From assembly GCA_973895155.1 (NCBI GenBank), contig OZ316891.1, forward strand, positions 17,916,095-17,980,094: DNA of 64,000 nt. The letters are read 5' to 3'. Under the pieces are notes generated by a model, which was not told the origin of the DNA, did no database searches, and was given only the letters and a program-made list of their open reading frames with translations. The DNA is from Marsupella aquatica (lineage: Eukaryota > Plantae > Marchantiophyta). Below, piece by piece: positions 421-42,009 of the stretch (the stretch's first letter is position 1; each line of letters begins with the position of its first letter). The position numbers were made by a program, and so were the translations under genes.

Positions 421-1342
421 TTAGGGAGGAGAGGAGACACTCACAAAGTGGGCCTTGAGACCGGGGAGACCGCCTTGACCCAGCTTGTGGACTGGATTGG
501 GGGTGGCTTTCACTCGCTTGGCTGCATCCATGAAACGTTTGGGTGGTCTTCCTTCTTCGTCGACCACCTTTTGCACATCAGCTACCTTCTGCTCGAGTCC
601 CTTCAGGTCATGGTCAAGGGGGAGCTTCCCGGTCTCCTTTGCTTTCAGGGATCGAGCTAGTGTATCCTTCCATTGTTCCAACTCGCGAGCTGCTTTGATT
701 TGCACCTCAATCTTGTAAAATGCATTCCAGATGTCCTCAGTGAATTGGAGGGGCCTGCGCAAATTCCTGTACGATATCAAGTCTCTCAGGTGGGCTCTAA
801 TCTTCATCCTATCATGGTATCTCATTTGAGACATGGAATTAGAAATCTTGTCTGCCAGCCATTGCTCATCTATGTCAGCTCCATTACGAAATGCATCCTT
901 GATCTGATTCATCACTCTCTTTCGCTCTGCCTTCTCAACCTTTCCCCATTGCATGCCTCGTGAGAAATTGCTTGTGATGATCTGTTTGATGGTGCTCTTA
1001 GCCCCTGCATAGGCTAGCTCAGTTGGAGTCCCAGTTGTCTCCAAGGCAATGAATGGAAGCTTTTTCCTTGCATCCTTTTTGACGTTGCTCATCTCGTTGT
1101 TTTCGAATTGCATCCCTCTCCTCTCTTCTCTTCTGTTTTTCTGTGGCTTGAGGAGAGGCAACTCCCGACTTAGCCCTCTCCTCCCTCTTCCTTCTTTTCT
1201 CTCTAGCCTTCTCCTCAGCTGCGACCCTCTCTTCCTCGTCTCTAGTAGCTTGCCCTGCCACAATTCCTGTTTGCAAAACCTGGCCTAAAATGGCACTCAA
1301 GGAGGCAAGCCCTGCTGGAGTATTCAAATTTACTTCACCCAA
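421..1342 (-). pseudogene. TnpA/Ptta-like CACTA accessory protein exon (frameshifted; probably continues toward the window start)
   Basis: RPLQFTEDIWNAFY...VHKLGQGGLPGLKAHF resembles the Transposase_24 P..W..F...H..G..G pattern and is followed by a GTGAGT donor. The N-terminal part is in another frame (ORF 1019-1342). Confidence 0.55.
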
Positions 1343-2029
1343 CTGTGCAGCACTGAGATGTTGGGCTACTAAGTCGCTCCATGCATATGTTGCTTCTCCT
1401 GATTTGCCCCATTGCCACTACCACCAGCACCATGTCCTCCACTCCCACCGTGCTCTCCACTCCCACCGGTAGCCATAGCTCAATCCCTCTCAGGTCTCTC
1501 TCAATCTTCTCCCCGCGGCCCCTTCTCCTCTCGCTCTCCCGATCAAACAAGGAATGAGCTTGATGCGAGCTCCCGCCGACACTTACGCATTTCAAAAAAA
1601 CCTCTTTGCGATCACATTCGCATCACAAACTGCCACCCTATTACCTTCACAAATGGTCTCGCAACTTGCGATACTTTTGTGAAGAACATACCCTCGCTAA
1701 TCCATCGCAACCCGCAGAAACGCCCAAAAATTGTTCTCGGCCTCTGTATTTGCGAAGATGTTGCGAACCCGGGAGGTTCGCAAAATGCATCTCTAATTTG
1801 TGAAGCAATTTGTGAGGCAGGTGATCTCGGTTTAGGGTGGGAAACTATCCCAGGTGTTTAAACGGCTTTACAAGGGTATGGCCTATTTAAACCCTTTTAA
1901 CTCAACATGGATTTGTGAATGGCCAATTAGTTTGAAGAAGAGGATTTTAGGTTGTAGTTGGGCTTTGTGTTTTTGTTTTTGAATCTTAATTGGGTTCTAA
2001 TTTAACAAAGGGTTTGAGTTTTAATTTGG

Positions 2030-2790
2030 GGTTTGGATTTAGAAAGGGTTTAGTTTAGGGAGGGTTGTGTTTCAATTGAAGGGGTTAATTTGGGTTTAGG
2101 TTTTAATGTAAGGGTTGGGTTTGACTTTTCACTGATTTCATATTTTTTGCTCTATACATATTTCAGTTTAGGGACATGGTTTTAATAGAGGGCTTTAAGT
2201 TAGGGTCTAAGGTAGGGGTTTGGGTAAGGTTGTAATTGAGAAGTTTGGGTTAGGGTTTAGGGTAGGGGCTTGATTTTGGTTTAAGTTTAGGGGTTTGGGT
2301 TAGGTTTAGGGTAGGGGCTTGATTTTGGTTTAAGTTTAGGGGTTTGGGTTAGGTTTTAAGTATAGGGGTTGGGTTCCATTTTAATTCTAAGTTGTGTTTC
2401 ATTTTTAATGTGGGGTTTGGGTTAGGATTTTTGGGTAAGGGTTTGATACATAATGAGGGAATATGGATAGGTAACTTAGGAGGGAGTTTGAGTTAGGGTT
2501 TAAGGTAGGGGTTTGAGTAAGGTTTTAGCTGAGGGGTTTGGGTTAGGTATTGAATATAGGGGATCGATGGGTTCAATTATAATTCAGGCTTGTGTTTAAT
2601 TTTTAATTTAGGGATTTGGGTTAGGGTTTAGGGTAAAGGCTTCATAGGTAATGAGGGAGTTTGAGTTAGGTTTTAGCTGAGGGATTTGGGTTAGGGTTTG
2701 AATGTAGCAGTTGGGTTTTTAGCGTAGGGGTTTTGGTTAGCTAGGGCTTTGGGTAAGGGTTTTATATGTTCATGTTTAGGGTAGGTTTTT
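2030..2790 (+). repeat. Degenerate telomere-like (TTAGGG/TTTAGGG) array inside the CACTA element
   Basis: Many GGGTTAGGGTTTAGGG-like units, including a ~50-bp tandem duplication at ~2245-2355. Confidence 0.75.
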
Positions 2791-3225
2791 TTTCTAATTG
2801 AGGGTATGCTTTCTTTATTTCATTAACATGAAGGGGTGGAACACTCTAGGAGTTACAGGGCACTTCCCCATCGTTTTGAGAGTTTTGGCTAATGCATATG
2901 CATTGCAAGAGCTTGGGCATCTGAAAGGTAAAGCTTGTTTTCCTGGCATTTTTTATTTGTACTGTAACTTGAGGGTCTATCATCCCTTTCTATAGTTTAC
3001 CATAAGTCATTGCTTAATTCATTGTATATTTGCAGATTTCTCCCTCCTACTTCCAGATTGGGTTCATCAAGTTTGGACCAAAAGACCTATAGGCATTGCT
3101 GAGCCCGGGTCTCATAAAGGTATTTTTTCCTTTCATTTCAGTTTAATATGTCTACTTAGGGATTACAAATGATCGTTTTAGCTATTTGTTTACTAACTCG
3201 CTATTCCAAATCTTCCACTTGCCAG

Positions 3226-4378
3226 ATGTCTTCATCCTCTACAACTTCCACCACATCAGACTCCTCCTCTGATGAGGACATAGATCCTCCTCCTCAGCCT
3301 GAAACAGCCGCTCGTCGACCTAGTGGTCTACCACGCCAACTTTGCAGTTGTAAAAAATGTGTGGGGATGGTTGTCCAGAAGTCATATGTATGTGCAGACC
3401 ATATTTCTCGATATGGACAACATCGAGGTCTTACACCCGGAGCCTCTTCATCCCATACGGTGAGTTGTAAACTTACTATGGTTTATTTTTTATTCAATAA
3501 ATATTGCTAGCATGATAAGTTGGGGAAGTTTACAATCACTTTGTTGGATTTGTTCCCTATAGGTATCTAATAGGCCTACACCCACGGCACCAGCACCCTA
3601 TGTTCCCTCACAAGGAGTTCTAGATGCTATAGGCTCGGCCCTTTCACAAGCTTTCCGTTTGGTTGCAGCAGAGCGAAGTGGTGTTGGGACAGTTCAGGGT
3701 GATGGTATTGTTACACGAGGGAAAAAACGGTCTAAAAGGCAACCTAGAGGGGAAGTTGATCAGTACACCTATAGGGTTGATGGTAGGTGGGGACCTTGTA
3801 CATTCACAGGGAAATGTGTTCCTATCATAAAGGATTGGAATCCTGATTGCCTTGGTTTGCCATGTGATATAACCTATGGTGAGGAAATAGAGGTTTGGGG
3901 AAGACATTGGATTGTCAAAAGTTCTACACTAGGGGAGAGACATGGGTATGGAATTTTTTCTTGCCAGGACATCATTGTGGATGATATGGGTGGAAAAGGG
4001 CACTCTCAAGATGGACCAACGTTGTTCCCATATGGTGGACCCATTTACAAGCGAAGACATTGGAATATGCTCCTTGTACAACACCCTGAGTGGAAGACTT
4101 ATGCATTGGACATGGATACTTTTGATGGTTGCACTAGGAAGTATAGTGAACAACGTATAATTGATGGTGATCCCATCCGTAGTGGAAATATAGCCGGTTT
4201 CATTAACAGTACTATGGGGACCCAGCCTAAGCGTAGGAAAAACTGTGAATGGGTTTTTGTTGATGGTCCCCCTCCAGCATCATATGGGCAGAGATATCAT
4301 CATGACCATTGTCTAGTTGTAGCTACCAGGACCATCAAGGCCGGAGAGGAGTTGTTTACACATTATGAGTGGGATTAG
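3226..4378 (+). CDS. Zn-finger (transposase-associated-like) + SET-domain lysine methyltransferase; exons 3226-3459 and 3563-4378, ~349 aa
   Basis: Exon 1 encodes CSCKKC...CADHISRYG. The GTGAGT donor at 3460 and the AG acceptor at 3561-3562 are in phase 0. SET motifs: HGYGIF, IDG...GNIAGFINST, VATRTIKAGEELFTHY. Confidence 0.8.
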
Positions 4379-4574
4379 GCTTATTTTAGGGATATGTATT
4401 ATTTATATGTTCCTTCATGCTTTGTGAACATATATTTTGTAAGTTAGGGTTTACACCCTAAACCTATGATGTTCTTTCACATTGTATGTTAATAATATGT
4501 GTCGATATTGTTTTTGTCTTATGAGGGATTTAATTTGGAGTTTGATTGTGAATGCTTTATTGTATTGTCCATAG

Positions 4575-7500
4575 AATGTGCGACCTAGCCAAGATATGTT
4601 GCCAAGGAGGTTGAGAGCTACATATGAAGAAATGGGCATGCCACAAGACGAAGTCACATCATCAACAGATTCTTCATCCAATGACAGTGACAATGAGCAT
4701 TTGGACGAAGGGGCACCTAGGACAGATTTTGAGGTCATGCAGGACCAGGAGACAGCCATGGATGACTTCATGACAGATTGGTTTGGTGTGGACGCCCGTG
4801 TGGACGTTGATGGTGAAGGACGTGGACCACCCAATGAAGGAGCTCCTCCACCAAATGCTGCACATGACCCTCGACCTCAACATACACCAGAAGGTCAACA
4901 ACAATGGGAAGAAGCGGAGGCACATGCTAGAACACCTATTTATGGGGGTGCTCGTTTGAATAGACTCTCTGCCATCTTGGCATTGATGAATCTTCAGGCA
5001 AAACACAAGGCAAGCAATGCCCTTCTATCGGATTTGTTTGCAATTTGCCATGACCTCATGTTACCTAGTGACAATGTATTTCCAGGAACTTGGAAGGAGG
5101 CAAAGAGAGTTCTATCATCCATTGGTATGGAATATCATATCATTCATGCTTGTATGAATGACTGCATCCTATATCATGAGACCAATGCCAACATAACTGA
5201 GTGTCCAATTTGTCATGAGCCTCGATATGACAACAACATGTTGACGGAAAAGGTGCCCAGGAAAGCTGTCCGTTGGTTTCCCATTATTCCTCGATTGTTG
5301 CATATGTATCGATGTTCTGACTTGGCAGAATTGATGGTATGGCATAAGACACATCGATCAGAGGCCGGTGTCATGTGGTTGCCAGTTGACTCCCCTGCTC
5401 ACAAGCATGTGGAGGCACAATGACCAGAGTTTGCACATGACCCTCGTCATGTGAGGTTGGATTGGCATCGGATGGGGTCAGTCCACACTCCCTTGGTGGG
5501 AAAGGACGCCCAACATCAGTTTGGCCGGTGGTTGTTATGAATTACAATCTTCCACCATGGTTGTCCATGAAAAAGGGCTTCTTATTGCTTCATTGATTAT
5601 CCCAGGTCCATCTAAGGTAAAAAACATGGACACCTATTTGGCACTATTGGTTGGGGAACTCCAAAAATTATGGGACGGTGTGTGGGCCTATGATGGTCGA
5701 AAAACTACAGGGGGATTACCACGTGTCTTCAAATTGAAGGGAATCAATATGTGGACCATGCATGACTATCCTAGTAAGGGGTATGGATTGGTGTTTTTTT
5801 ATGTAATAGAGAGTTTGTTTTAAAAGAAGTCCCTCATATTTATGTATGTACATGAACTTTTTACATCCTTTGACTCTAATTGAGAAAGTTATTTTGGTTT
5901 GGGTTTGTTGCAGGGTTTGGGTTTGTTTCAGGGTTACAAACTCAAGGGTATAAGGCATGCTCCACTTGTGGTCCAAGCCTTGAAGATATGGCCAAGTACT
6001 CAAGATGGCTTCGCAAGATAATCTACCTTGGGCATACCAAGTTTCTTCCACTTGGACATGAGATGAGGTCTGACCCCCTTCTATTTTCAGACTTTGACAT
6101 GATCAATGGTGATGAGCGTGACATACCTAAGCGTACATCCTTTGCACATTGGAAATCCATAGCTGATAGGGTGGCAGACCCTAACGACCCCATGACATTT
6201 GATGGAAGTGGGTTGACGAGGTGGAGTATACTAGCAACATTGCCGTATTGGCCAGAGTTGAAGATTCATCATTTGTTAGACCCCATGCATATAGAGGGAA
6301 ACGTTGGGAAGGCTTTGATCAAGCATTTTTATGGAGAAAAGGACCATAATTTTAGGGAGGCATGCCAGGGTCTAGAACGACATCCAGATGTATGGATAAC
6401 AGTTGATGCATCAACAGGGATGGAACACCGTCCTTCAGCTCCTTGGGTTTTGAGTGTTGGTGAAAGAAGAGAGTTTCGACAACGCATAGGTCAGATGCGG
6501 TTTCCTACAGGCTATGGTGCCAATCTCCGGAAAGCTTTTGGGATGGAGGACAATCATAAGTGGCCAATGTATTTGAAGACACATGACTATCACCGTTTAC
6601 TACAACATATACTTCCTGTGGCAATCATAGGCTTGGGCAGTGAAGAAATGCAAGACGCCCTATGGTCATTGGGCACTTTGTTGAGATGGATATGCTCAAA
6701 GGAAATATATGAAGAAGAGATCCCACGGATGGAGGTATTGGCAGCAGAGGTAGTGTGCAAGTTAGAGAAGGCCCTCCCTCCTTCCTTCTTTGATTGTCAA
6801 GTACATTTACTTGTTCATCTTGTGAGGGAGGTTGCCATTGCTGGTCCAGTGCATTGTTGTTGGATGTATTGGTTGCAAGGTATATGGCTGTGTTAAAGGC
6901 TTATGTACGGAATCGTGCACGAGTGGAGGGGAGCATGGCAACAGGATACTTGGCAGCTGAGAGTATGTTCTATTGCAGCAACATCTTAGCCACCATTGAT
7001 CCTAGTTGTCCACACAGTTGGATGGAAGAGAGAGAAATGGAGGAGGATCGTTTAACAGGAGCCAAAAAAACACGCTTACTAACCGGAGTGGAGTTGACAC
7101 AGATGACTACTTTCATGTTGAGTAATAGTACTGTGATGGAAGAATGGAGAGAGTTTTATGAGGATGCAAAGAGGGAGAGTCGTCGTCCAAGGATTTTTCC
7201 AAAGTTCCTTGAGTATATGAGGGAGAAAGTACTTCAGTTGGATGCTATGGTGGCCCAAGGTGAGAGTGTATCACATTTTCCAGATATGACTCCTGAGGTT
7301 CGAACAATTGTTCATGGCCCTTTGAGACTTGTTCAGACCAGAACAACAATGTGGACACAAGGGAGACATTTCAGGATTTCTGACCTTGATGAGAAGAGGG
7401 GTAGAACTTTTGACTGTGGAGTTCAAGGGCAGTTCATGCAGGATTCACAAAGTAGCGGCCATGACACCAATGTCATCCGAGATGTGGTGCCTCACTATGG

Positions 7501-7861
7501 GAAGATAGAGGAGATCTTGATTGTATCCTATGATGCGGATACAAAATTTGAAGAGTATGTCTTCAAGTGTAAGTGGTTCAAAATTCACTTGGTTGGTGAG
7601 AATCGCACAGTACTTCTTGATGATTGTGGGTTTACTCGACTGAAGACATCGGCAACTAGCTTTCAACCATCTCATTGGCAAACATCTGAACCGTTTACAT
7701 TCCCAAGTCACCTTGAGCAGTGTTTCTATATTCCGTACCCACCAGACCCAGAGGAGTGGTCAGTTGTTATACCGTATGTGCCACAATCTCGTTCCATTAT
7801 CTCAGAAAAACCTGAAGTTATTATTGTGTCAAATGGAGGAGAGGATGAGGACCAAGTTTGA
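4575..7861 (+). pseudogene. CACTA TnpD/tnp2 transposase (Transposase_21, DUF4218 and DUF4216-like regions), disrupted
   Basis: IHACMNDCILY...CPICHEPRY, LASDG, YNLPPW, IIPGP, HDYP, LDPMHIEGN, LKTHDYH, PPSFFD..VHL.VHL, YVRNRARVEGSMA. TGA replaces Trp at 5421, with frameshifts at ~5460, ~5590 and ~6875. Intron 5774-5913. Confidence 0.92.
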
Positions 7862-7918: not shown

Positions 7919-8060
7919 TGTTGTAACTCATACTTGAGTTAAGTCTACCTTTGGGATAACTACCTATGTAACTACCCTAACTACTTAGGCCGTAGCCACA
8001 TGTACATATTCTACCAAGAGTAAAGATGGAACCAACTCTTTGTCTCATTATCCTACAACA
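7919..8060 (+). repeat. 5' LTR (142 bp)
   Basis: TGTTGTAACTC...CCTACAACA; matches 22551-22693 except for one substitution and one indel near the 3' end. Confidence 0.95.
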
Positions 8061-8074
8061 CGTTATCAGCACGA
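8061..8074 (+). promoter_or_regulatory. Primer-binding site complementary to the anticodon arm of tRNA-Ile (half-tRNA primer)
   Basis: CGTTATCAGCACGA lies directly after the LTR. Its reverse complement TCGTGCTGATAACG matches the tRNA-Ile(AAT) anticodon arm, with wobble A read as G/I. Confidence 0.7.
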
Positions 8075-10765
8075 CTCTACGAGGCTGAGCGGAGCTAGGC
8101 CATGAAATTTTTTTAAGAAGAAGGGCGAATTGAACAACGAAAAGAAGAAGACATTGATAATCTCATAAGGATCAAAGCAGGATTAAGAAAGACCGAGTAA
8201 GGCAGATCCGGGAAAGAGGACCGAAGGCAACCATTCGACAACTGTGAGCACTTTCAGAAATAAAATTTTTAACAAGGACATTGACGAATCAATGAAAGAA
8301 GCGCAACATCGTTCGAAGACGATAAGGACAACCTCAGACTGGCTGAATTTTTATTTTTTTAGGCCATGACTGATTCACTCTAAGACCTGAAGAGGCCGAG
8401 CCATGACGGAGCTTTGTTAGAGGGGCAGAGAGAGGTATGAACGAATTTGGCGATGTATCGCTGGAAAAAGCTGAATGAACGAGAGAGAGATGGCGGAATT
8501 AAGGATTGTGATGTGATGGATAAAGAATTGCGTCATAGCGTGCACAAAATTTGCGGATGAGAGAGTCCTATAGTGATGCGAGGTGAGGTCATGTCAATCA
8601 AGGAAAAAGGGATTGTTATCTCTGAAGGCGGAAGCGGCTAGCTAAAGAAGCCGAAGAGTTTTCATCAGATTCTACTAATTCCCTATCTCCACATCGGCAT
8701 TCTTTTCATGTGCATCCATGTGCACAATGTGGGCCTGGCGATGGTGAACTGAACCTTCAAAGTTTTTCCCGCGTTCCGAGGATTATGAACCGAATGGATT
8801 GTTTTCACAAACGCAAGTGAACGCCCTGCTTGATCTGACCTAAAGGAATGACAAAATCATACGCACTGGCTGAGATTCAAAGCGTATTCCAATGAATTTC
8901 GAAGAAGGAAGAACGACAAAGGCGCTTTGATGAAAGAGAATTCTCCTTTTGAAATTGACCAGACGACCCAATCTTGAACAAGGGCCCTCACACAGAGCAA
9001 GACTTACCGACCGGGCCACCGACTACCTTGAAGTCCACCTGATTCAGAGACACACAAAACTAACTACAGAGAAGAAGGATCGGACCCAGATACAATTTGG
9101 CACACAATGATAAGGACAGGGGAGAAGGAGGCCCGAGTCATTCGAGTACGATACCGCATCCAGAACGATACAAGTGCTGTATCGATTTTGGCAATAAGGA
9201 TAACAAGGCAGTGACATCGACGGCATTTAGCATGAAATATCGAGGAGGCCCCAGAGATAAGAACCAGAATGTCACATCATAGGTAGAGAAGACGGCACAA
9301 TTCACGGGACACAAACAGACCACCACAGAGCGAAATAGTGATGCGATGTGGAGGCGTTGAAATTCGGAAATGAATATGAAGGAATGCAGCAAGAAGTGAC
9401 CAGAGGGAAGGAATGAAGGAAGGAACCATGCCACAATAAGCGAGTGAAGCAGAAGATTCAGAGGATTTCCCCTTGTCGAAGGAAGGATTGGGACCAATAA
9501 CAGAAGATAAGAGAGAGCGCAAACCGGAGAATTATACTGTCGACAACCATGACCAGGCGCAGATGGAGTGAAGGACGATAGATAGAGCAAAGGACCACAA
9601 AGAAAGAAGGCATACTTGACGTTTAGAGAGCACGAAGGGAATGCCTACAGCTGACGAACAAATCTCGCAACAAAGAACTTCAAAACTTTGAGAAAACATC
9701 GAGAACATACCGCTAAGTGCAAACCCTCCTTAATTGCAAAATCCGTCAAATAGATTTGCGTATACAAAGAACAATGTGCACTGAACCAGGGAAACACACA
9801 TACTAAGAACGGGGACAAAATGGCATTAAAATGAAAGATATCTATTGGGAATATTACCATATAAGAATTGCCATTCACAAATTAAGGGGGAGAATTGTTT
9901 TTCCCAACGTGCCTATTGCATTTAAAAGCTGCCTATGGCACTTAAAAGTTAAGCTCCGTGCCTACTACACATGGAAGCAAATGAGTGCCTACTGCACATG
10001 GAAGTAAATGACAAATTGAGGGGGAGACATCAAGTAAGACTTGACATCAAGCAATGTAACCCATGGGATGTGCCTATTGCACAAGTGCCTATTGCACAAG
10101 TGCCTTTCGCACCAACGAATACCTAAAAATGGAACTCTATTCCATGCATATGGCAAATCATGAAATCTAAGGAATTTTTATAAATGATTGAACATGGTGT
10201 TAACACAATCACTTACCAATACTTGATGAGGTATACTGGATATTAAAGTACCATATGATAATATGAGGTACAGTACTAGGTCATAAGGTACCATAAGGTG
10301 AGACATGGCATGGTAAGGCACCATAAGAGATGGTGCGCCATACCCCAATATGATAACCCTATGTTGTGGATATGGTACGTGATGTGGTGCAAATAGGTTA
10401 TACCCACACCAAATCTAGGGTTGGACACCCAATCCAATTCCAAGGCCATGGATTACACCATCTCATCTTCATTTTGTACTAATACTTTGCTTTGTCATGA
10501 ACACGATTTCGGACCGACCGAGAAGTGTGTCGGAGTTCTCGTTTAGCCCGATCCCGTTTTTTTTCTAAGGCAATGCAATGACCGATAAAACTGGCAAAAA
10601 CTCTCCGAAACGCCACTTTCCTCCATTGCATCGCCGCGGGAATGTAGGGAGCGATACGTGCATCGGGTTTTACATTCCGTCAGTGAAAAAGTCCGAACTG
10701 CGAGTAACTTGGTTCGAACCGCGTAATCCAGGAATGACCACGCACTAACCCAGGTAAAAGGGGAA

Positions 10766-10819
10766 CTTAACCATGGTTAAGGGGAAATTAACCATGGTTT
10801 AGAGCGTCTCCTATATAAA
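10766..10819 (+). promoter_or_regulatory. Putative cargo promoter: duplicated TTAACCATGGTT palindrome followed by a TATA box
   Basis: CTTAACCATGGTTAAG at 10766-10781, a second near-copy at 10788-10801, and TATATAAA at 10812-10819. Confidence 0.45.
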
Positions 10820-11414
10820 GAGGAGCGGGCTGCCCATAAAACGTTTTCTTTCGCCAGAGCAAATATCTCCTGACTGAGAGCGAATACCAAACTCCCATCA
10901 AGTCTTACATTCCTCCCAAGCGATTCGACTCTTTCTACCGAAAACCCGATAAATTTATCGGAACAGCCATTCCTGTTCAAGTTCTCCATGTAAGACTAAC
11001 TAGTCATTTAGTGTAAAATGTCCAGATCCGAGCGGACTGCGATAAATTTATCGCATTTTGCATTCCTCTGTTGCAATCATTTGATCCAGTGTGTTTAGAG
11101 AGGTGTTGCCTTCATTCCGTTAAATTTATCGGAGTCTCCATTCCTTTCATGGAAAGAGGAGTAATTGAGAATTCGATAAATTTATCGGAGTTGTCATTTT
11201 TGTGAAAGATTGAATTCAGGGCTTAGGTGTTTGAGGAAGTCATATTTTCAATTCGAATGCGGAGTGCGATAAACTTATCGCATCCTCCTGTGAGAATCAT
11301 TTTCCTTTGTTTTGTTTGGAGACTCATCTTCATCTCTGATGTTGCAGTGTTGCCGGGTTTAGGAGGCACAACGGAAGGTCGATTGCACTCCGTGGACAAC
11401 AGGTATTGTGACAA

Positions 11415-11744
11415 ATGGCTGTCTTCCTTGAAAATCGTGTCAAACGTGCACGCCGGTTGTACAAGAGACTCGTGCGACTCAAAGTTCTCCCCATCGGTAT
11501 AGGAGCATTGTGGATGGGTGGTACTGATCCTGGAGATAGGCAGAATCCTCTCCGCATTGAATTCTGCGGAATGAATGATGCAGGAGTTCCAATTTGTTCG
11601 AGGTTGATGTTAATGGCGTGTTTACATTCTTTGGAGTTTTCTTGTAACTATTGTTGTCGTCGTCTTGATAACAAGTACCACAAACAGGCTCACTTCTGTT
11701 GTAAGATTTGGAACGAAGACCCTTGGGTGAACCTTTCACGATGA
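11415..11744 (+). CDS. Transposon cargo ORF, basic and Cys/His-rich, function unknown
   Basis: ATG-initiated 109-aa ORF (RARRLYKRLVRL; CNYCC...H...HFCC). Confidence 0.4.
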   Translation: MAVFLENRVKRARRLYKRLVRLKVLPIGIGALWMGGTDPGDRQNPLRIEFCGMNDAGVPICSRLMLMACLHSLEFSCNYCCRRLDNKYHKQAHFCCKIWNEDPWVNLSR

Positions 11745-11932
11745 GTGTTTCGACCTTTTCATTGAGGCGCATCTTGGAAGGACATATTTAAATAAACAAG
11801 TCCTACCCTTGCGCAGCGAATATAATACGTCATGAGTCCTAATCGTTAAACTGTCGTGCAGGGTTGGTACTGTGTTTGGTTACACCTGGTGATTGAAGGT
11901 ATTTTTATTGGTGGTTTTGGTAGCTCTGCTTC

Positions 11933-12481
11933 ATGGCTGCATCGGAGAATCTAATCGTTGCAAAGATGGGATCCGTTTTAGCCCACGAGCGTAGGAAATA
12001 TATTCGAGGAAAAGTGCCCGGTGTGGAATGCGGAAGTTTTTTGAATGGACTTCCCGATGAACTCGTTGAATCTCACATTTGGCCCCTCCTAGCATTGTCT
12101 TGCACACAAGATGAAAACCTTGGCCTTGACCTAAAACTTCTACCAGAAGAACGACTAACTCGAATGAGAACAATCATTTGTCTTGGAGCCACCTCGAAGA
12201 AATGGAACCATCTTGTTGTTGGTACACGATTTTGGGCGCTATTGAAATATGCAGTCCGTGAGATCAATGACATAAACAAAATGCTCGCAAGCATTCCTAA
12301 TGCCGTCCTTCTCTCAAACCTACATATTGCTAGGGTCTTCCGAGAGGAAACTCATTTCCTCCCTCCCATAGATATGCTTGGGTGCTTCTCGTATGACCGA
12401 TTAGATGTGTTTCTTAGAGTTTGGGTGAATCTTGGAGAAAGCGGGAAGCGGACAATTCTTGCATGGCATGGACGAGTCTGA
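11933..12481 (+). CDS. Transposon cargo protein with an F-box-like motif
   Basis: FLNGLPDELVESHIWPLL...ICLGATSKKWNHLV...FW follows the F-box pattern LP.E....I...L....L..V.K.W..L. Confidence 0.6.
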   Translation: MAASENLIVAKMGSVLAHERRKYIRGKVPGVECGSFLNGLPDELVESHIWPLLALSCTQDENLGLDLKLLPEERLTRMRTIICLGATSKKWNHLVVGTRFWALLKYAVREINDINKMLASIPNAVLLSNLHIARVFREETHFLPPIDMLGCFSYDRLDVFLRVWVNLGESGKRTILAWHGRV

Positions 12482-12773
12482 GTGGATGAGGCATTGCAGC
12501 GAACATCCGATAAATTTATCGCACTCCTCATTCCTCTAGTCGATTTTGGGTGCTTGTAAAGAAACACTTTGAATATAATTGACTCTGCCTCCCCTGACTT
12601 CGGGTTGTGTGGTCCAGAGTGTATTTTTTTGCGCCTCTTCGGACGATTAGCTGACAAGTGCATTGGCTTCACAGCCCGTTATACAAGGTACTGTAAAGTT
12701 GGATGAAACTTGTAGAATTGTAATTAGTATGTTCTCCAAAATTTATTCCTGATTTCTATTCGGTGATCAGGCC

Positions 12774-13250
12774 ATGCTCGAGCGACGCATTTTTGTACCC
12801 TTCCCGGATCCTCCAGAATGGGGGAATGGAGCCATGCTGGACCAGCTAAGGAGGCTGGATGAGTCACTAATTTTAAAGATATGTAGGCTGGTAGTAAAAC
12901 CGTTTTACCATAACGCATTTCACTTCTACGTAGATCAGGTAGGGGGAGAAATTTATATTCGGTGGGATAGATATGTTGGATTTTCTAAAAGAGTTATCCT
13001 ACTCTTTCTGAAAATTGGTGCAGTAAGACGTTTTATACTCCACTGCTGTCATGTTGTGAAGGGCAATCCTGCTTATGAGCCAGAATTCTATGCCGACAAC
13101 AGACGTAGAGCATTCGATGAGATTCAGGATGTGATTGACGAGCTAGACAATCCTCTTGCCACCGAGTTTTTTATTGACACTGGTGGGAAACTATATTCAT
13201 ACAAGATTCGTCAACTCCCCCCCCGGCCAGCCGGTCCGTGGGCTCTTTAA
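12774..13250 (+). CDS. Transposon cargo ORF, function unknown (158 aa)
   Basis: ATG in GCCATG context just after a CAG acceptor; globular-looking composition. Confidence 0.45.
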   Translation: MLERRIFVPFPDPPEWGNGAMLDQLRRLDESLILKICRLVVKPFYHNAFHFYVDQVGGEIYIRWDRYVGFSKRVILLFLKIGAVRRFILHCCHVVKGNPAYEPEFYADNRRRAFDEIQDVIDELDNPLATEFFIDTGGKLYSYKIRQLPPRPAGPWAL

Positions 13251-13711
13251 CTTGATCTATGTAAGTTGCCTGTGGACGAACGTCCTTGCCAATGGTGAGA
13301 TCTGTCCATGTTGCACAAATGCTTGTTGTGACATTCCGTCACGCCGATATTCAGTAGCAATAGTGAATCCTGAGACTGGTGAAGTTGATTTCCATTGGCT
13401 GTGGGCTTATGATCATCGCGTCACTCATATTCCCCAATGGCCCAAGAAGCGGATCGAACGCTTTGCTCTGGCGAGGTTCAACTATGATTAGGGTTTAGGT
13501 TTAGGGGTTAAGGTTTTGGATTTAGGGTTCCGTAGCTGATTCTTCGACCTGTACACTCGGCCGTCAATTTAAAGAAGGCTCACTTTTGCGATAATTTTAT
13601 CGGTCTCTTTGTCCTTGTGTGATGAGATGTCGTGTCCACATGTGCTGTGAGATTGGCGGCGATAATTTTATCGCTCTTTGCATTGGAATTTGTTTATTTG
13701 CAGACTTTTCC

Positions 13712-16700
13712 ATGGCTGCTAGTGGAAAGAGTGGATCTGCTGAGGCAGAAAGTCTCATGACAAGCCTCACCAATGCAATTTGGACAAGTGAAGACATTTG
13801 TGAAGGGATCAAGTGTATCAAGAAGTCATGGTACTTCCGTGACGCCAGATTACAGTCCACGGGTTTCGAAGACTGTGTTACCCCAATCCTTTGGGTCCAG
13901 TTGCAAAAATCGGCGAAGGTTAATGTTTCGTATGGCCCTGTCATTGTTGTTGCCGTCGTCGAGTTCATGGTTGGCCACGGGGAGGGAAAAGTGTTGACAG
14001 AGGGCCTTAGTTTCTTGACAATGTGTGGGCGCAAGGGTTTCACATCTCTCATTGTTACTCTCGATAACTTTGATGAGAAATCGATGGACAGTTATCCAGA
14101 AGATCCCCTTGTTGCTGATGTTCGGGCAGCAAGAGAGATGAATGTTATGGGTTCGGCTTGGATCGGCCAGTATGTGCAAGATTGTGATGCCATCATGCTT
14201 CCAAGGGTGAACGCAGAGTACAAGAGACTTGTGGGTGAAGAGTTCAAACCTGTCCGCAAAATTGTTTTCAAGAAACCAGGTTCAAGTGGAAGCGGTGGTT
14301 CTAATGCCGATAAAATATCGGGGCGGAAAGAACCATTGCAATCCTCTACACATATTGACGTGGACGAACCTACAACTTCTGGTCGGGTTTCGGGAAGTGG
14401 AAAAGGGAAAGGGAGAGGTAGCGGCAGGGGAGATGTCGCGGGAACCTCTGACGGTGGGAAGAAGAGCCAGGAAACTGGCGGTAGTGGGAGAGGCCGGGGC
14501 AACCATTGAGGACCATCCATTAAACCAAGCGAAAGTAAAGGATCCGAGGGATCCGGGCCATCTGGTTCTGGACTTAGCACAAAGAGGAAGAGGACTGGTT
14601 GGACTGAGACGGTGGCTGCAGAAGTAGATAGAGCTCCATCAATTCCATCAGTTCCAGTCGCGGTTCCTACGGCGCCATTGGTAAGTACTACGTCGTTGTA
14701 CTGTTTAACAAATACGAAATCCGATAAAAATCTCGCTATTTATTTCCTGAATTGCGGATTGTGGAGTTATGTTGAACAAATGCGAACTCCGATAAAAATC
14801 TCGCAGTTTCTTTCCTTAATTGAATTTGCAACGCTTTTGTAGGCTGATCAGGAGGAGGAGACGGCTCTTTCGATGTATGAGACGGACGCGATCAAGGCAG
14901 AGCTCAGTCTTCTGATGCAACAAAGGGTGCAAAGGACAACTGTGCTTCTGCATGTCGACAATCTCATATTTGATGAGGAGGGGGATTTGACAACTTTGAT
15001 TAGACCAGTGGATAGATTGCATGTGGAAAATATCAAGATACTTCTCATGAAAAACCCCACCAACTTCAATGCCCCGTTCGTGCTGTGTGTGGATCCGAAG
15101 GATTGTCCCACAACCGCAGATTGGGACATCCTGAAGTCAAGGGTATGGAAGTATAGAATTATTGGAGGGAATCATGGTGCTCGGGCAAAGTCCGAGTTGT
15201 TTAAAATGTACAGGAAGCAAATATATGGTGAGCTGGAAGCTTGGGTTTACGCTGGGCTTACGAGATCCGAGGTCCGAAAGTTAGGCTTCCAGCATAACTA
15301 TGACCAGGAGTATCGGAAGAACATGACTAAAATTGACCAAGTTCGGGCTTGTCACAATATTTTCCTTGAAATGGGTGTGGGCTCGACTAAAGATGTCCGC
15401 GAAGCATGTTGTCAAGAATGCATGATGGAGTACACGCCAGGAGTTCGTGACTCCATGGCCAAACATGATCCGGCTTTCCAAATTGCTTTCCGAACAGGTG
15501 AAATTTGGGATCTTCAGGAGCAGATTTTCCAGATGTGGGAGAAAGGTATTGTCTTAGGACAACCCAAAAAAATTGTGGCAACGACGAACACAAAGGGAAA
15601 GGTGAAACCTTTGACGGTAAGGGAGATTAAAATGAATAAACTTGCTGGTGACCTCAACTTAAATTCATTTCGAGGTCTCCAAGGACTATCAAATAAGGAG
15701 CATGTCAAGCGCCTCTTGAATAGGGTTATCGGGAAGGTGATCACTTTGGATCAAATGCACAAGGAAGGTGAGAAGTTGAAAAAGCTTGCCAAGGTGAAGA
15801 AACTATTTTTGCAGATATCTGGTCAGCCAGATTGGGCAACATGCAGAGAAATGTTTCCCAACGAAACAGATGTCTCGGTCCTTGGCATATGGGCGGAGAA
15901 ATTGAGTGACGCGGTAAGCATTCCTCTCACAGCATGCTCTATCGCGAGATTTTTATCGGCTTTAGCATTCCTTTGTTGGTTTCTAAGCGATTCCATTTAT
16001 TGGCTAGCGTGCTCCATCGCGAGATTTTTATCGGCCTTAGCATTCATCTCACGCTATTCTAATTGTAGATGTGTCTGACATTCTTACAGCTGAAGATTAA
16101 TTCAAAAAGGAAAAGCAAAGTGGTTCCGGCTGTCACTTATAATTCTGCGGGGGAGGTTATTGTTCCCTCAGCTGAAATCCCTTATGTGTTTAAGAATTTT
16201 GTGCTTGCTGCAATCGATAAGTACAATCGGCTGAGGTCCTTAGGCGAGGGCACAGCAGAAGCGTTTGAACAAACATGGAAAAATGCAGACGGGGATTCTT
16301 TTCCCTACTATCTCCATGTTGGTGATGTTCGAATTTTGGATTCTTTTGTTCAGCCAAGGGCTTACACCCTTGCGGTTGCGGATATTCCGTATGGTTTTAA
16401 TGCTCCTGGTTCGGAGTTTGATGAAGTGGCCTTCACAGAAAAGGACATTTTAGACATGTTGACAAGTTTCTCAAAGATGACGACCGCTAAGCAGTGGAGG
16501 TTTGTTGTGATCCATTCACTACAACAAACGCATATGGTGATGTCTGCACTGGAGAGTGTATGCAACTGTGGGATCGAGGCTGGAATCTGGGAGAAGACTA
16601 ACATTCATGAGCGTCCCGCTGGAGCTCGATTGGCGTGGGGTTTTGAGAACTGGTCGATAGGTTTCTATAGCGAGGAAGGCATTCGGAACATGAACATGTA

Positions 16701-17202
16701 CAATTTCCAACCGGATGAGTCTCGCGTCAATATCATCAAGGTTCCATGTGTAACCAAGAAGTCCGTTGATCCGTTGGGATTTGTTGTGAACCCATATCAG
16801 AAGCCTGTTGGTTTAGGGGCTTGGTTTGTTTCCCATTTCTCTGAGAAAGAGGATTGGGTTATTGATCTTTGTTGTGGAACCGGATCGACATTAGCTGCTA
16901 CGCTCCTCAATTCTCGCTAGGGTTGTGCTGTTGATAAGAGTTCTACGCAGATTGGTTTTGTAAAATCCCGGATCATGATTCTGGAGTCAAATTGGAATTT
17001 ATATGAAGAATCCCAGATTGAAGGGCACGGCGTTGAAGGTCATGAGATTCAACCACCAATTGCAGGCCAATTGGGTGTACTCGGGACATCGACTTACGTA
17101 GTTGAGGTCGTGAAGGAGACCAAAGAGGAACAAGAAGAAACTGAGGAAGAGCCTCCCAGAACACCAAATGAGGATGATCTCAATGACATGTTATTAGATT
17201 AG
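13712..17202 (+). pseudogene. ParB/Srx-like domain + beta-class N6-adenine/N4-cytosine DNA methyltransferase fusion (~1050 aa; exons 13712-14680, 14843-15913, 16090-17202) with two nonsense codons
   Basis: Both introns are GTAAG...AG in phase 0. ParB-like RPVD..HV..I...PFVLCV...YRIIGGNHGARA at ~15000-15190. MTase motif IV DIPY (16381), NPYQKP, then motif I DLCCGTGST (16864) give the beta order. In-frame TGA at 14507 and TAG at 16918, with the reading frame continuing after each. Confidence 0.85.
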
Positions 17203-17530
17203 TTGCGTGTGCTTGTTAGGATAATGTCAATCACCAATGAAGTTGTCGATAAATTTATCGACTTCTGTATTCCATGAGGAAGAACCTTTGTCACATTTAT
17301 TAATGCAATAAATTTATCGGACTTTGCATATATCGGACTGTCGCGGTGTTCCTGCTGGGGGAATGGAGTTGTCGATAATCTTATCGGACAGCATTGTATT
17401 CTCTAACTGGTTTGTCATTGCAATTATTTAAAAAAAAAGATATCATTATAGCTTCGGAGTACATAGTCCCAGAACGATAACCACTGTACATATTCATGGG
17501 AACGATAATCATTATAACTTAAACCTGAAA

Positions 17531-20500
17531 CTAGCTTCGACTATCAACGACTACAGTCTCCATTGCATTTTGAATGATTCGTCTTGTTTGTATAGGGAGA
17601 GTACTATTTGCCAATAACGCAAAGTTATACGCATAAACGGCAGTTTCTGATAGGGACAATTCATCCTCCAGTACTTTGCTAGACGAAGCCTCTTTCTCCG
17701 GATAATATCTGCCTTCAATTGCAGACTCTTCCTCCGAATCCATTGCATACCAAGTGATTTTAATCCGCTCCGGGATGTCGTTAATTCTTGTGAGAATCTC
17801 AGTCACTTTTGCCATCCAGAATGGTCTTCCCTTGGGATCCTGATGGGCTGCTACACATATCATTGCAAATTTAGTATTCACCTCTAGATCCTTGAAGTCT
17901 CCAATTTCCGTGACTTTTCTTCGACTTCCGGAATACATGACTGTCCTCACACCCGCTACTTTATCAACCAAGCTAGGTTCCATTGCTGCTTCCGTAGGAT
18001 TACTCGGAAGTTCTCTCTGTACGTTTACCTTGGGCCAACTCCAATCAAAACTCCATTGTGCAGGTTTCAGGTGGTGCTGAATCACTTCTTTTTGTTTGTC
18101 AAAAAAACGACCCCACCATAGACGATCTGCGTCGTCAAAGTAATTGAATCCATCTTCAATTGCTCTTCGATATTTTTGAAGAGTTGACAAATAACTTTGA
18201 GCCGCCGGCTCATCTTGTTCCTCAGCATCATTCTCTTGCTCTTCATTGTCTCCTGTCGCTCCCGTGGCCGACTTCAATGCCATTTGTGGTGCGACCCACA
18301 TTCCAGATGATGGAATGTACCAAAAAAAATCCACCGTCTCCCCCCAATCGATTGTCGTTGAAAGATGTTTGGCATGGAATACGGACCGAGCACTTCCATC
18401 TTCGAGTACTCTAGTAATCCGAAATTGTTTTTGAGCACTTATGCCGTGGAGAGTACGTAGAACCTGACCATCCATATCCTTGTCATTTGCTTGATCCTTG
18501 TCTGACACAAATTTCTTGAAATCGGTAACCTCGTCGACGAAAAATATCTTTGCCGTAGGATTGTAGGATTCCTCTATGATTGCTGAAAGAGTGTCCAACC
18601 GGAAAGCTTTCCGCTTGTTCAATTTTGAAGAAAACTTGCTAAACATTTGATCAATTTGATCATGGGTGTGCCCCACCAGTAGGAAACCAACCTTTATTTT
18701 CTGGAAAACACCTATCTCCACCAACATATTCAAATATGCCATAAGATATTTATTCTTGTTTTCCCGAGCTGTGTTATCAAGCTGGAGGTAAAGCACTGGA
18801 GGGAGCAGACCTTCCCAGGTATTCAGAATATGCTGGATAACGTGGATGGTCAGGTTGCTATCATTGTGAATATTTGGATAGTTCAAAAAAACATTTGAAC
18901 TTAATTGTTTGTTGAAGATCAAACAACCCACTACGTGTACGGGGATGAAATACTTTTCATCCATATTCTTCGGACACCGAATGAAATGAGGTAACTCTGT
19001 CTTCTTTTGATCCATTCCATCAATACAGATGCCCAAATATTTCTCCGGACTCTTGTAACATTTGCTCCGGTGCTTTGCTAACTTCTCCCTCTCGACTGCT
19101 TGTGCCTTCCGATGCTCGTTTAGCAATGTTGAGAATTTTCCTACAACAATAAAAAAATTTAGGACAAAACATGATAACCGCAATGTTGAACCCTGACAGC
19201 GATAAATTTATCGGGTTCAGTATTCAAACACGAGACCGTAATGATAAACCCTGACAACGATAAATTTATCGGGTTCAGTATTCAAACACAAGACCGTAAT
19301 GAAAAACTGTGACAGCGATAAATTTATCAGGTTCAGTATTCAAACTGTTCAAACGATATATTCACTCACATGGCCAAAGAAGAAGCACATGAATACTCAA
19401 CCCGATAAAATTATCGGGAGTAGCACACAGGTTTAGAAATTTACTCTTTTCTGCTTCGAGTGTTGCCTTGTCACGGAGTGCTTTGAATTCAGTACACGGG
19501 GCGCAGGTGGAGAAACGGCTCCTTTTGGGGATGCGCACGCGAGGAAACTCCTTGTTCCAAATGCGAACAAACCACGAATATGTCATGCCTTGTTCTTGGC
19601 GCATTAGAGTTTCGGACTGGAAGGCATCAAAAACTTCTGTTTTTGTCCAATTGTCAGGTAAATGAAAGATATCCTTGTTGGGGAGACTCTCGACATTTGT
19701 GGAAAAAAAATCATCCAACCATTGGACGAGACCAAGATGTGCGGGTGATTTTTCTCGACAAACTGTACCGATCTATATCCGACAAAACATGTTCTGCGAG
19801 ATTTTTTGGAGACGATTATTTCCCAGTGAAAATAATTTCTTAAAACCACTTCGACAAAAGGATCTACCGCTAACTGAGTAACCACTTGCACCAGCATGCC
19901 CACCCTTCACACATCCTCTTAGAAGGACGTTCTTCTCTGGGTAGGATAGCCCATAGTAATAAGTGCGTTGTTTCGTCACGGCTAGCAGACCCAAATTCCG
20001 CAGACAGTAATTATCACAACACGAATACTTATGAATTTCTCTCATTTTGTTTCTATTCAATTTGTCATTTATCACATTGTCTTTCCTAGTAATTCGGTCC
20101 CTATCTTTTTTACTAGGCTCATTTGACTTCTCTACAACCTGAAATCCGTTCATAACATTGGCATTTTCGGGTCCTTCAGGTGCCTCGTGAATAGATGCAT
20201 CACTCTCTGCTGAGCTACCATCCTCTATAGATCTCCTTGACGCATTTAGAGGGGCACTGAATAGACGACTATAGCTATTCTCTTCGACAGCTCCTTCTAA
20301 ACATTCAGACACAACTTGTGCTATTATATCGGATTCTCTATCTCCTTCCTCATCTTTGTCCTCCGATGCACTCGACTCATCTGAAAACACAATTGGACTC
20401 CGTGGCTCTCTATACATAACCCGAACGCCACTAAGACCTCTCCTTGATACTTGGAGCCTGGAACCAATGACAGTCCGCCCTTGAGAACTTGGAGATTCTG

Positions 20501-21122
20501 GATTCGCACGTGCAGTCCCAACGACTCCGCGAGCTGCTGGAAAATTGAGCACTTGTTCACCACGATTCCCACGGACCATTCGAGAAAGGGCCGAGTCTGG
20601 ACTTCGCAGTCCGATTCCCTCGCTTGCTCGCACATCCAGTCCAGGCAATGCAAAGACCGATCGCCGTATCGGTCTTTGTATTTCTGTGTCCCGATCCTCA
20701 CCCGGAGACTGAAAGATCCGTCGTTGAACTTGTGTTGAATGTGGCAACTTGAATGCCGACTGCGATACGCGTATCGGTCGCCGGATACCCTCTCCATAAC
20801 CCGGGATGGATGGCCTGAAGCGACGTCTCGGACCTAAACCTGGGATTGAAAGTTTCTCATTTCTTGGCGATGGAACGCTCAAGAGACGATGCTTCTCAGG
20901 TTTACTAGGCGACACATAGTAAGCACTGGGCTCAGGACCAGAACTTGCATCAGAATCTGAGTCAGAGATTTCGGGCACTATTTGCTGTGAGAGAGGTAGA
21001 GCTTTAAGTATGCGACTTGGCAAACAGCGAGCGACAAGATTAGGAGAGGATTCAACTGAACTGGAAGGTGAATCTGTGTCTGATTGAGACATGGCTATCC
21101 GAGACACTATGGGGCTTTGCAT
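17531..21122 (-). pseudogene. Sola-like (DUF7869-type) DDD transposase; exons ~21122-19445 and 19140-17531; one nonsense codon
   Basis: IDGMDQ...LQLDNTARENKN...FLLVGHTHDQIDQMFS catalytic motifs and Cys clusters SCCDNYCL and FSTCAPC. Intron 19444-19141 restores the frame (EK-R-KFS). In-frame TAG at 19773-19775. Confidence 0.85.
19177..19345. repeat. ~58-bp tandem repeat (3 units) in the transposase intron, each carrying the 14-bp palindrome
   Basis: CCCTGACAGCGATAAATTTATCGGGTTCAGTATTCAAACACGAGACCGTAATG-like unit; palindromes at 19200, 19258 and 19316. Confidence 0.9.
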
Positions 21123-22550
21123 TCCTCCCACAATCAGGGAAAACGAAAGGCTCAACGGACAGAATGTTGCTCCAAGAACACAACTCCCAAAACTCTACTC
21201 TCGATAATGATGCCAAAAACTTATCGGCGGTGGCCCTTTTATAGTGTCTGTTGAGGGGTTGGCCCACGTGTCCACTTTTGATTGGCTGTCACCCTAAACG
21301 ACAAAATAGCAGAAAAGGGTATATTTCTTGGATTTCCAATTTCATTCTCACACGTGCATCGTGGCAAAATTATATAGTTTTGAAATTGAAGCGATAAATT
21401 TATCTGATGTTGGTATTGCAAAAGTGGTTCCTTCATATGGAAGTTGCAATTTTGAAATTGAAGCGATAAATTTATCTGATGTTGGTATTGCAAAGAGTTT
21501 TCTTCATATGGATAGGAATTTTGAAATTTAATCGATGAACCGAAGGATCTTAGTATTGTCGACTAGTATTTTTGTCGCCCGTAGTTTTTGCGATAATTTT
21601 ATCGGACTGCGCATTGCTGTTGAAAGAATGGCATGTTGACTATGGTCACTTGCGGAGGTAACTGGTCAATTGCGGAGGTAACTGCAAGGTAAATTTGATG
21701 AACCGTGCAGTAATTCTTATCGACTGTGATGTAAAATATTTTTGGTAAATATCCAAAAACTGAGAAACCTGAGATTGGGTCGGAGTTTTCGTGGCTCAAA
21801 TCCGGAGTTCGATACAGTTATCGCACTTGGCTCGAAACATGGATATGGATTTATAGATAAGACCTTTCATATATCTTCGGAGAGCGTGAATATGAGGTCG
21901 AGGAGAAAGTTTTTCGGATCTAATTGTTCCTTGATAATATGAATGTTTGTTAGCATGAATTTCATTGGTTTTGATCATTATTAAATTTGTTGTTTCAATC
22001 CGAACTCCGATACGAATTACATTATTTCCCCAAAAACGCATTTTTGATGAAAAAAACTGCCAATTTCGCGAGATTCGGCGGAAAATAAAAATACACTTCT
22101 CGTTTAGAGGAAATAGTTCTCGTTCGGTCCGAAATTGTGTTCATGGCATGTAATCGGTGACCATCAAGGAATCTCCATTTCCAGATTGGAAGATCTTCAA
22201 CAAGCCTATAGTGCTAACAAGCACCTTAAGAGACTTTGTAGAAATTACACATACACTATATGCTTAAACCCAATTATGTTACACCCATGGGGATGGTAAT
22301 ACTCTTTCCTCCCACAAAGAAAGTAGGGGAGGTTTTAATGAGGTTACATCCCCGACTTACACTTTACCATGCAACATGAATTATAAGACATCTATTAGGA
22401 GAAGCTTGACATTCATTTATAGTAGACTTGAGATGGCTACACCATTTATAAAATAGACTAGACATAAACAAAACCTATTGCATACCACTGAATATACCCA
22501 AAGTAGACTCTTGATTGTAACATTTCAACCCCAATGTTACAAAGGGGGAG

Positions 22551-22693
22551 TGTTGTAACTCATACTTGAGTTAAGTCTACCTTTGGGATAACTACCTATG
22601 TAACTACCCTAACTACTTAGGCCGTAGCCACATGTACATATTCTACCAAGAGTAAAGATGGAACCAACTCTTTGTCTCGTTTATCCTACAACA
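22551..22693 (+). repeat. 3' LTR (143 bp)
   Basis: Preceded by the PPT and followed by TSD CTATC. Confidence 0.95.
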
Positions 22694-36400: not shown

Positions 36401-36959
36401 AAAATGGATTGGGCTGTAGCTGCTGCATTATGTGATGTGAGGAAAACCTTGAGCATAGTGAAGCAAGGGATGAAGATCGTGAAAAAACTTATCCTATGGG
36501 GGAAAGAAAGGTACGTCGAGATAAGATTTCTGATGAAGTTCGAAAACAGGTGGAACACTTTTGGGAAACCCACACTTAGATTTCTCCATGTAAGAACAAT
36601 GAAGCCAGATTGCGACTAGGGCGGAAAGTGTATGAAACACATCAAGTGCACTGGCTGGAGGATACACAGGTGAGAAATTCTCCATGATTGATTTTGCCAC
36701 TTTTGCTTTTAACTCATAATACAATCTGCAGATGTTGAGAAGTAGTTTTGCTTCATGTGTGCTTTAGCCATTGTGCTCTGCTGTAACCACCTAGTTTCTT
36801 CTTTAAGGTAGGATCTGAATAATTTTGTGAGACCTGACGTCCTATATAGCCTAGCAGGAAGGACTCTGTTCCAGGAAAATTCCTTCAGGACCGACTATCT
36901 AGGCCTTCAGGAAGCACTGTTGAATCCTTGTCAAGTGAAGTCTGGCATGAGAAACAAGT

Positions 36960-41712: not shown

Positions 41713-42009
41713 CTCGGGGGTTTCACTTCCACAAAAATGGCATATCACGTGCGACAAAGTATAGGGTCATTTTATTGGTTCAAAGGGAAGACTTAAGAAT
41801 TTTCTGAGAAAAACAATAGGGTCTTTTAAATCCAATTTTGAGACTTATAAGAACATTAGGGTCCTTATAACAAATATTCTGGAATATTCCAAGAATATTC
41901 CAACTTTATAGGGGTTGAAAAAATAAAAAAAATTCTTGCATTTTAGGGGGTCCAAGGCCTAAAAACGTCGCAGGTGATGGGGAGGCATCCGTATAGTGAG
42001 GCCCCCGAG
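41713..42009. mobile_element. MITE, 297 bp, 8-bp TSD ATATTATC; same family as 37630-37957
   Basis: CTCGGGGGTTTCACT...AGTGAGGCCCCCGAG with shared internal ATCACGTGCGAC/GTCGCA motifs; TSD at 41705-41712 and 42010-42017. Confidence 0.9.

Follow-up and report, generated by a model that had tools for sequence, protein, structure and literature searches.

In the liverwort Marsupella aquatica, the 64,000-nucleotide stretch at positions 17,916,095 to 17,980,094 of contig OZ316891.1 (assembly GCA_973895155.1, forward strand; hereafter the window, numbered from its first letter) contains a DNA transposon with terminal inverted repeats (TIRs) at 10500-22141, 11,642 bp as delimited by alignment of the TIRs. 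The element combines a DUF7869 transposase gene with a gene for a predicted fusion of ParB-like domains to a DNA methyltransferase, and clusters of a palindromic motif tile its whole length. Our subject is this motif and the protein that may read it. The genes and boundaries, with introns placed from GT/AG signals and homologue boundaries, are as follows (LTR, long terminal repeat; ORF, open reading frame):

7919-22693, plus strand: host LTR retroelement whose LTRs are nearly identical and whose target duplication is CTATC; the transposon is inserted in it.
10496-10499, no strand: CATG left of the element, seen in the sequence and at a joint with 5 shared letters.
10500-10524, plus strand: left TIR, identical to the right TIR at 23 of 25 positions, with CGAGA at TIR positions 20-24.
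11415-11744, 11924-12481, 12774-13250 and 13147-13491, plus strand: four unclassified ORFs from the ORF list, in the left-hand part of the element.
13712-17202, plus strand: gene for a predicted ParB fold, a candidate ParB/KorB-type DNA-binding domain and a beta-class N6/N4 methyltransferase (exons 13712-14680, 14843-15913 and 16090-17202; stops at 14507 and 16918).
About residues 152-357 of exon 14843-15913: predicted central DNA-binding domain of the fusion.
17531-21092, minus strand: DUF7869 transposase gene (exons 21092-19445 and 19140-17531; Pfam PF25273, E 1.5e-49; stop at 19773-19775).
22117-22141, minus strand: right TIR, 25 bp, also with CGAGA at positions 20-24.
22142-22145, no strand: CATG right of the element, seen in the sequence and at the empty-site joint.

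Contigs from three of four public runs (X1, X5 and X7) join 10494 directly to 22141, giving an empty site, and all 30 bins of the element are covered in runs X1, X2 and X5, with many variant contigs (depth of reads or contigs over the element does not equal copy number). The empty site and the many variants together therefore indicate a mobile, multi-copy family. The flanking CATG is likely a target duplication of 4 bp. Duplication of 2 bp, AT, between ends reading GAAC/GTTC would account for it just as well, and the palindromic CATG is also compatible with a duplication of 0 bp. The element may belong to the Sola superfamily; the similarity shown is to DUF7869. Sola elements have TIRs and a 4-bp target duplication. 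Sola1 is listed for Physcomitrella. The closest named relatives, which share 25-53% identity, belong to ferns, Riccia, Ginkgo and Chara.

Allowing up to three mismatches, the 14-bp palindrome matches 24 times in the window, against 2.2 matches expected from shuffled sequences (largest value 5). Seven copies are perfect, at 10947, 11040, 11174, 12508, 17247, 19200 and 19258. A preliminary description of this DNA had reported seven perfect and about 16 variant copies concentrated in one element, and both the tally and the confinement were borne out: all 24 matches lie at 10947-21823, inside the transposon, and none in the remaining 52 kb of the window. None falls in the coding part, which makes up about 69% of the element. 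The 14-bp core is part of a longer site of 36 bp, AATR-N7-CGAKA-N4-TMTCG-N7-YATT, whose outer AATR element had been overlooked. AATR stands at -11 to -8 in 19 of 48 half-sites, compared with a background of 1.1%; any other offset gives between 0 and 2 of 48. Counted by site, 18 of the 24 carry AATR on one side or both, tandem pairs not being independent. A matrix that ignores the centre, trained on the 24 sites and with the other 52 kb of the window as its control, scores at least 12 at 27 of 11,642 positions inside the element and at 0 of 52,322 outside. It adds 10519 (degenerate), 10652, 20658 and 20763, the last two being sites with GC-rich centres in the transposase coding sequence that had also escaped notice. 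Palindromes extended to 16-18 bp had been described at three places and all three are present in the sequence, but positions 17261-17262 differ in all covering X1/X2 contigs. The extension at 17245-17262 is therefore not typical of the family, and such extensions were dropped as a feature of the site.

The 27 sites fall into nine clusters, one about every 1.2 kb (gaps of 629-1827 bp), and the gaps are more even than random (coefficient of variation 0.28 versus 0.58, p 0.009, a regularity noticed post hoc). The clusters, to which no strand is assigned, are:

Cluster 1, 10519-11280: 10519 (degenerate), 10652, 10947, 11040, 11118, 11174 and 11267.
Cluster 2, 12508-12521: a perfect copy between two ORFs.
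Cluster 3, 13589-13673: 13589 and 13660, upstream of the methyltransferase ATG.
Cluster 4, 14722-14803: two copies of CGATAAAAATCTCG in the methyltransferase intron 14681-14842.
Cluster 5, 15945-16033: two copies of CGAGATTTTTATCG in the methyltransferase intron 15914-16089, in the orientation opposite to cluster 4.
Cluster 6, 17247-17386: 17247, 17306 and 17373, between the convergent genes.
Cluster 7, 19200-19416: 19200, 19258 and 19316 (a 58-bp tandem) and 19403, in the transposase intron 19141-19444.
Cluster 8, 20658-20776: 20658 and 20763, within the transposase coding sequence.
Cluster 9, 21213-21823: 21392, 21464, 21591, 21810 and a weak site at 21213, upstream of the transposase gene.

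Judged by GT/AG signals, the last four sites of cluster 1 are likely to lie in a 5' leader intron. The grouping given earlier (five sites, two, two plus two in opposite orientation, three, four and at least four, the last counted here as five, from left to right) holds, except that it omitted the perfect copy at 12508. Telobox-like TAGGGTTT repeats at 13489-13527, just 5' of cluster 3, are a possible promoter element of the methyltransferase gene.

Sites with the same arms recur in related elements. A plain regular-expression search found arm matches in four of nine metagenome loci (three in L001, five in L003, one in L004 and two in L005), in the transposase intron and the downstream spacer, as in the present element, and L001 also has a convergent methyltransferase gene. 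Relatives at 57-64% transposase identity keep the arms, the flank and the positions, and both half-sites switch from AA to CC at the centre: at core position 6, A occupies 41 of the 52 half-sites of this element, and C occupies 24 of the 28 in the relatives, whose sites have the AATR flank in 12 of 14 cases. L007, at about 40%, has a different palindrome, CATGA-N2-TCATG, in seven copies; these lie at 668-3423, at a divergent promoter, in the transposase coding sequence and in an intron. L009 has a 5-copy tandem palindrome that may be unconnected. Searches of viral contigs found no related loci, and 45 single sites matching the 36-bp pattern there are read as chance; the ParB part was not found in GTDB. 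In Riccia, the adjacent locus tags R1sor_010795 and R1sor_010796 encode a DUF7869 protein and a ParB-methyltransferase fusion.

Among copies of the element in the four public runs, region 10930-11300 has 38 variable positions. None of them falls within the 50 arm positions, where 5.1 would be expected (p 0.003), and one falls at the centre of a core, out of 70 core positions in all; flank variation in this comparison may be overstated if paralogous sites were wrongly aligned. If the sites were RNA hairpins, DNA cruciforms or neutral relics of duplication, the intronic location of most copies and the four groups of tandem duplicates would be accounted for. By ungapped flank identity, however, 26 sites form 21 unrelated groups and just four groups are recent tandem copies (the test would miss older duplicates with indels), and the arms are conserved while the flanks vary. 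Folding is weak, at -2.1 kcal/mol for the 14-mer and 0 to -0.5 kcal/mol for its variants, and the bases that would have to form the loop are in many cases complementary to one another. In the relatives, 12 of the 14 sites lack pair 4-11; the AATR flank is found on either side of the core (9 left, 15 right), and Rfam gave no match. We regard a structural or neutral origin as very improbable. The symmetric centre and the broken stems do not suit a hairpin and fit recognition of double-stranded DNA by a dimer; the sequence comparisons as a whole fit a protein site on double-stranded DNA, rather than a hairpin or a by-product of tandem growth. This agrees with the earlier suggestion of a homodimer binding site, which gains support from arms that are invariant among copies, kept in distant relatives and absent from the other 52 kb; local duplication, the explanation that could have displaced it, is confined to the four small tandem groups, and the site is conserved between element copies.

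The fusion gene offers a candidate for such a dimer. Its homologues end at the same donor site as the element's exon, and a search with the middle exon, 14843-15913, gave 341 relatives with E-values up to 0.001, the ten looked up including Chara, Riccia, Ginkgo and an amoebozoan. The family thereby extends to a gymnosperm, Ginkgo (P0069), and to the transcriptome of an amoebozoan, Clastostelium (P0144). A model of the N-terminal part (predicted local distance difference test, pLDDT, 64 overall) matches ParB, Noc and KorB with Z 10.8-11.5 and root-mean-square deviation 2.0-2.7 over 92-99 residues (five of the top seven rows), and the top 16 ranks listed by Foldseek are all of ParB/Noc/Spo0J type (best E 7.9e-5). 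This part is accordingly predicted to belong to the ParB-CTPase fold. Folded alone, the central domain reaches pLDDT 90, and in a structure search over 48,161 chains the first two ranks went to KorB and to KorB bound to its operator; entries for Spo0J, ParB-parS and SopB-DNA took ranks 5, 6, 17 and 18. The domain may be of the ParB/KorB type, a case built on its collinearity with the N-terminal match and on the Spo0J DNA-binding domain as the only PDB sequence match of the profile, a weak one (E 0.09); HTH_ParB is found, weakly, in 3 of 17 members (best E 0.043).

The last exon is a predicted beta-class amino-methyltransferase, closest in sequence to N6-adenine enzymes. Motif IV precedes motif I, as in the beta class of N6/N4 enzymes, and a profile search of the PDB listed beta-class N6-adenine enzymes first (MboIIA, CcrM and RsrI; E 9e-11), with a weak match to bdelloid-type N4C entries (E 0.1). 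PF01555 matches the stop-truncated exon at E 5e-4, below the cut-off, and four of seven homologues above it. The exon matched none of 1,859 longer protein candidates and no phage protein. Atlas features place exon 14843-15913 beside fungal DUF3723 clusters (score 0.95). DUF3723 occurs as Starship cargo. A Type I restriction-like reading of ATCG-N7-CATT was dropped, the A/T spacing not fitting the usual rule for such sites.

ParB-family proteins bind palindromic multi-copy sites through their central domain (PMC7383237), and KorB regulates the RK2 plasmid from palindromic operators, its R117A variant repressing from proximal but not from distal operators (PMC11790492). The reading we favour, on which our confidence is evenly divided, is that the palindromes are parS- or O_B-like operators for the element's own ParB-methyltransferase fusion. 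The helix-turn-helix central domain, as a dimer, would recognise the CGAKA of either half-site, while AATR, about one helical turn further out, would be read through a second contact. A fusion that lacks the Box II arginine would act locally, without clamp closure or sliding, and such local action would account for the spacing of the clusters, about 1.2 kb, and for the two coding-sequence sites far from any intron. Most speculatively, the tethered methyltransferase may methylate the element's DNA at N6 of adenine or, less probably, at N4 of cytosine, which might shield it from host silencing by 5-methylcytosine (5mC) or regulate its promoters; alternatively, the bound protein itself may tune those promoters. 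CpG retention in the element is 0.82, versus 0.37-0.38 in two other transposons of the window, and weakly supports escape from 5mC.

The proposed system resembles KorB-O_B, ParB-parS and Noc-NBS (PMC11790492, PMC7383237, PMC12704722) in its predicted N-terminal ParB fold, followed by what may be the same central DNA-binding fold, and in its multi-copy palindromes, and KorB regulates a mobile element's own genes (PMC11790492), as is proposed here for the fusion. Unlike those systems, it lies in a eukaryotic transposon with introns, lacks the Box II arginine and has an unrelated site sequence; the C-terminal methyltransferase replaces the dimerisation domain, and no ParA was seen.

Several observations weigh against this assignment. 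The match of the central domain to KorB is modest: about 100 residues are collinear, but Z reaches 4.2-6.3, where scores under 8 count as noise for the tool, and a Foldseek search with this domain gave nothing under E 0.76. Box II reads GNHG in all 16 close homologues that cover it, without the GxxR arginine, and in this motif the protein departs from the ParB family; among 194 proteins scanned, Gly or Ser stands in place of the arginine in 45 (GNHG) and 14 (GNHS) cases, and Arg occurs there in four motif matches. This arginine is required for nucleotide binding (PMC12704722), and its loss makes sliding doubtful. The catalytic motif is DIPY, not DPPY or SPPY (homologues have DPPY in three cases, DIPH in two and DLPY, DIPF and DVPY in one each), and the present copy has three in-frame stops, two in the methyltransferase gene and one in that of the transposase. 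CpG retention is also high in the LTR element (0.72) and in the 28-33 kb stretch (0.78), near the element's own value, and is mixed among relatives. The intron of L002, a locus whose transposase is 65% identical, holds no site. To these are added the TIR-proximal sites and two distant loci, which bear directly on the transposase.

Binding by the transposase, with the palindromes as internal loading, autoregulatory or anti-silencing sites and the ParB-methyltransferase as cargo or co-factor, is the strongest alternative, though less probable than binding by the fusion. Every locus with repeated palindromes (the window, L001, L003, L005, L007, L055 and L058) has the transposase gene, and no other gene is shared by all of them. 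L055 and L058, at 25-34% transposase identity, share the CGAT half-site, with clustered GCGATCA-N-TGATCGC between genes (11 and 6 copies; no such clusters in L057), and have no detectable ParB-methyltransferase, although both contigs may be partial. CGAGA occurs in both TIRs, a perfect half-site lies at 10572, and the degenerate full site at 10519 overlaps the inner end of the left TIR and outscores every outside position. The preliminary statement that the motif is not part of the TIR therefore stands for the right TIR, which holds no full site, and needs qualification for the left. The absence of a full site from the right TIR speaks against the transposase, as does the absence of such palindromes from L002, L006 and L008 within the stretches examined, where a transposase is nevertheless encoded; moreover, the element already encodes a predicted domain of a palindrome-binding fold. 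The AtMu1 transposase binds motifs and activates cognate copies, but where it occupies copies of its own element the peaks lie at the TIRs, not in introns, and TnpA likewise binds termini (10.64898/2026.08.24.746577). Both Spm TnpA and AtMu1 are transposon-encoded proteins that use dense clusters of a cognate motif, as proposed here, and both bind termini, whereas the present clusters tile the whole element (same source).

The L055 and L058 loci (L055 3866-7002 and 7087-8490; L058 3712-3955) are OTU-protease-DUF7869 elements with palindromes upstream of each cargo ORF. Their contigs are filed in bacterial metagenome-assembled genomes, and they are probably eukaryotic contaminants, because the same 8,492-bp contig occurs in two such genomes of different phyla (L055 and L056). 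A likeness of the last L055 ORF to ParB, noticed by eye, found no support from hhalign (probability 0.1), Pfam or the PDB.

The binder might also be the product of a left-hand unclassified ORF, acting as a VANC-like protein, or a host transcription factor. The sites do share with VANC21 sites of Arabidopsis VANDAL elements a short, family-specific motif, a location in introns, intergenic spacers and terminal non-coding DNA of a multi-gene transposon, and partial tandem growth (PMC5735166); in addition, ORF 11415-11744 is rich in Cys/His, and clusters flank likely promoters. Against a left-hand ORF product, no DNA-binding family was detected, Pfam giving no match for any of the four ORFs, PHROG no significant match for three and the atlas none for one. 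Were the binder a host factor, sites would be expected beyond the element as well, where there are 0 in 52,322 positions, and the centre would not switch by family. We consider either binder unlikely. VANC sites are, besides, 9 bp long, asymmetric and in a single orientation within a Mutator-like element (PMC5735166), whereas the present site is a 14-bp quasi-palindrome with an outer AATR. The motif density is that of a VANDAL-type system, but the element falls outside that group in its DUF7869 transposase and its ParB-methyltransferase candidate, and no Mutator-like or VANC-type Pfam match was found among 10 element ORFs.

Returning to the fusion as the reader of the sites, we advance a wider proposal with considerable reserve: since before the split of Chara and land plants, plant DUF7869 transposons would have carried an addressing system of bacterial style, in which a ParB/KorB-derived reader is fused to an adenine methyltransferase and parS-like operators recur at regular spacing in introns, in spacers and even within codons, each family marking itself with a non-host methyl group and so escaping or tuning silencing, with site switching like that between ParB and Noc. 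Phage fusions of ParB with N6/N4 methyltransferases (PMC12704722) and chlorophyte-type Dam with a ParB-HTH (PMC4738411) likewise have a ParB-type module joined to an amino-methyltransferase. Those are phage or prophage genes, or Group-2 enzymes of chlorophytes and chytrids, while the enzyme here is of the beta class and lies in streptophyte transposons with candidate cognate sites. MpDN4MT1 of Marchantia (10.1101/2021.02.12.428880) and N4CMT of bdelloids (PMC8885841) are likewise bacterial-type amino-methyltransferases in eukaryotes; they differ, in a comparison by description and the weak PDB match, in being host genes, MpDN4MT1 without extra domains and N4CMT with SPPY and a chromodomain.

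Elsewhere in the window, 35579-40793 is a second, unrelated transposase-like locus without a Pfam name, with AAGGAC-N4-GTCCTT arrays at 36983-38390 and 43082-43436 and 16 copies of the GTCCT/AGGAC pair in 35-41 kb; no ParB-methyltransferase match for it was found in the window. Related insertions of about 300 bp, resembling miniature inverted-repeat transposable elements, lie at 37630-37957 and about 41713-42008, with ends CTCGGGGG...CCCCC(A/G)AG and 8-bp duplications ACTATTAA and ATATTATC. A CACTA-like element (Transposase_21, DUF4218, DUF4216) at 421-7861 includes a SET-domain ORF (3563-4378) and telomere-like repeats (2057-2740).

The literature searched, which did not extend to subscription papers or supplements (those of PMC4738411 and PMC12704722 may list such proteins), held no account of a plant transposon with a ParB-methyltransferase fusion and cognate palindromes. 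Internal palindromes set at even intervals in DUF7869 elements also appear to be undescribed there, a point that would stand with the transposase as the binder. If the fusion reads the sites, the element would represent a second, unrelated answer to the whole-length addressing of VANDAL/VANC, one that joins components of bacterial chromosome segregation to an enzyme that modifies DNA, and readers with switched centres would amount to an orthogonal read-write toolkit. It would also give a concrete source and location for N6-methyladenine and N4-methylcytosine in early land plants, where these marks are debated, and the marks would be predicted to be confined to this family, near the clusters.

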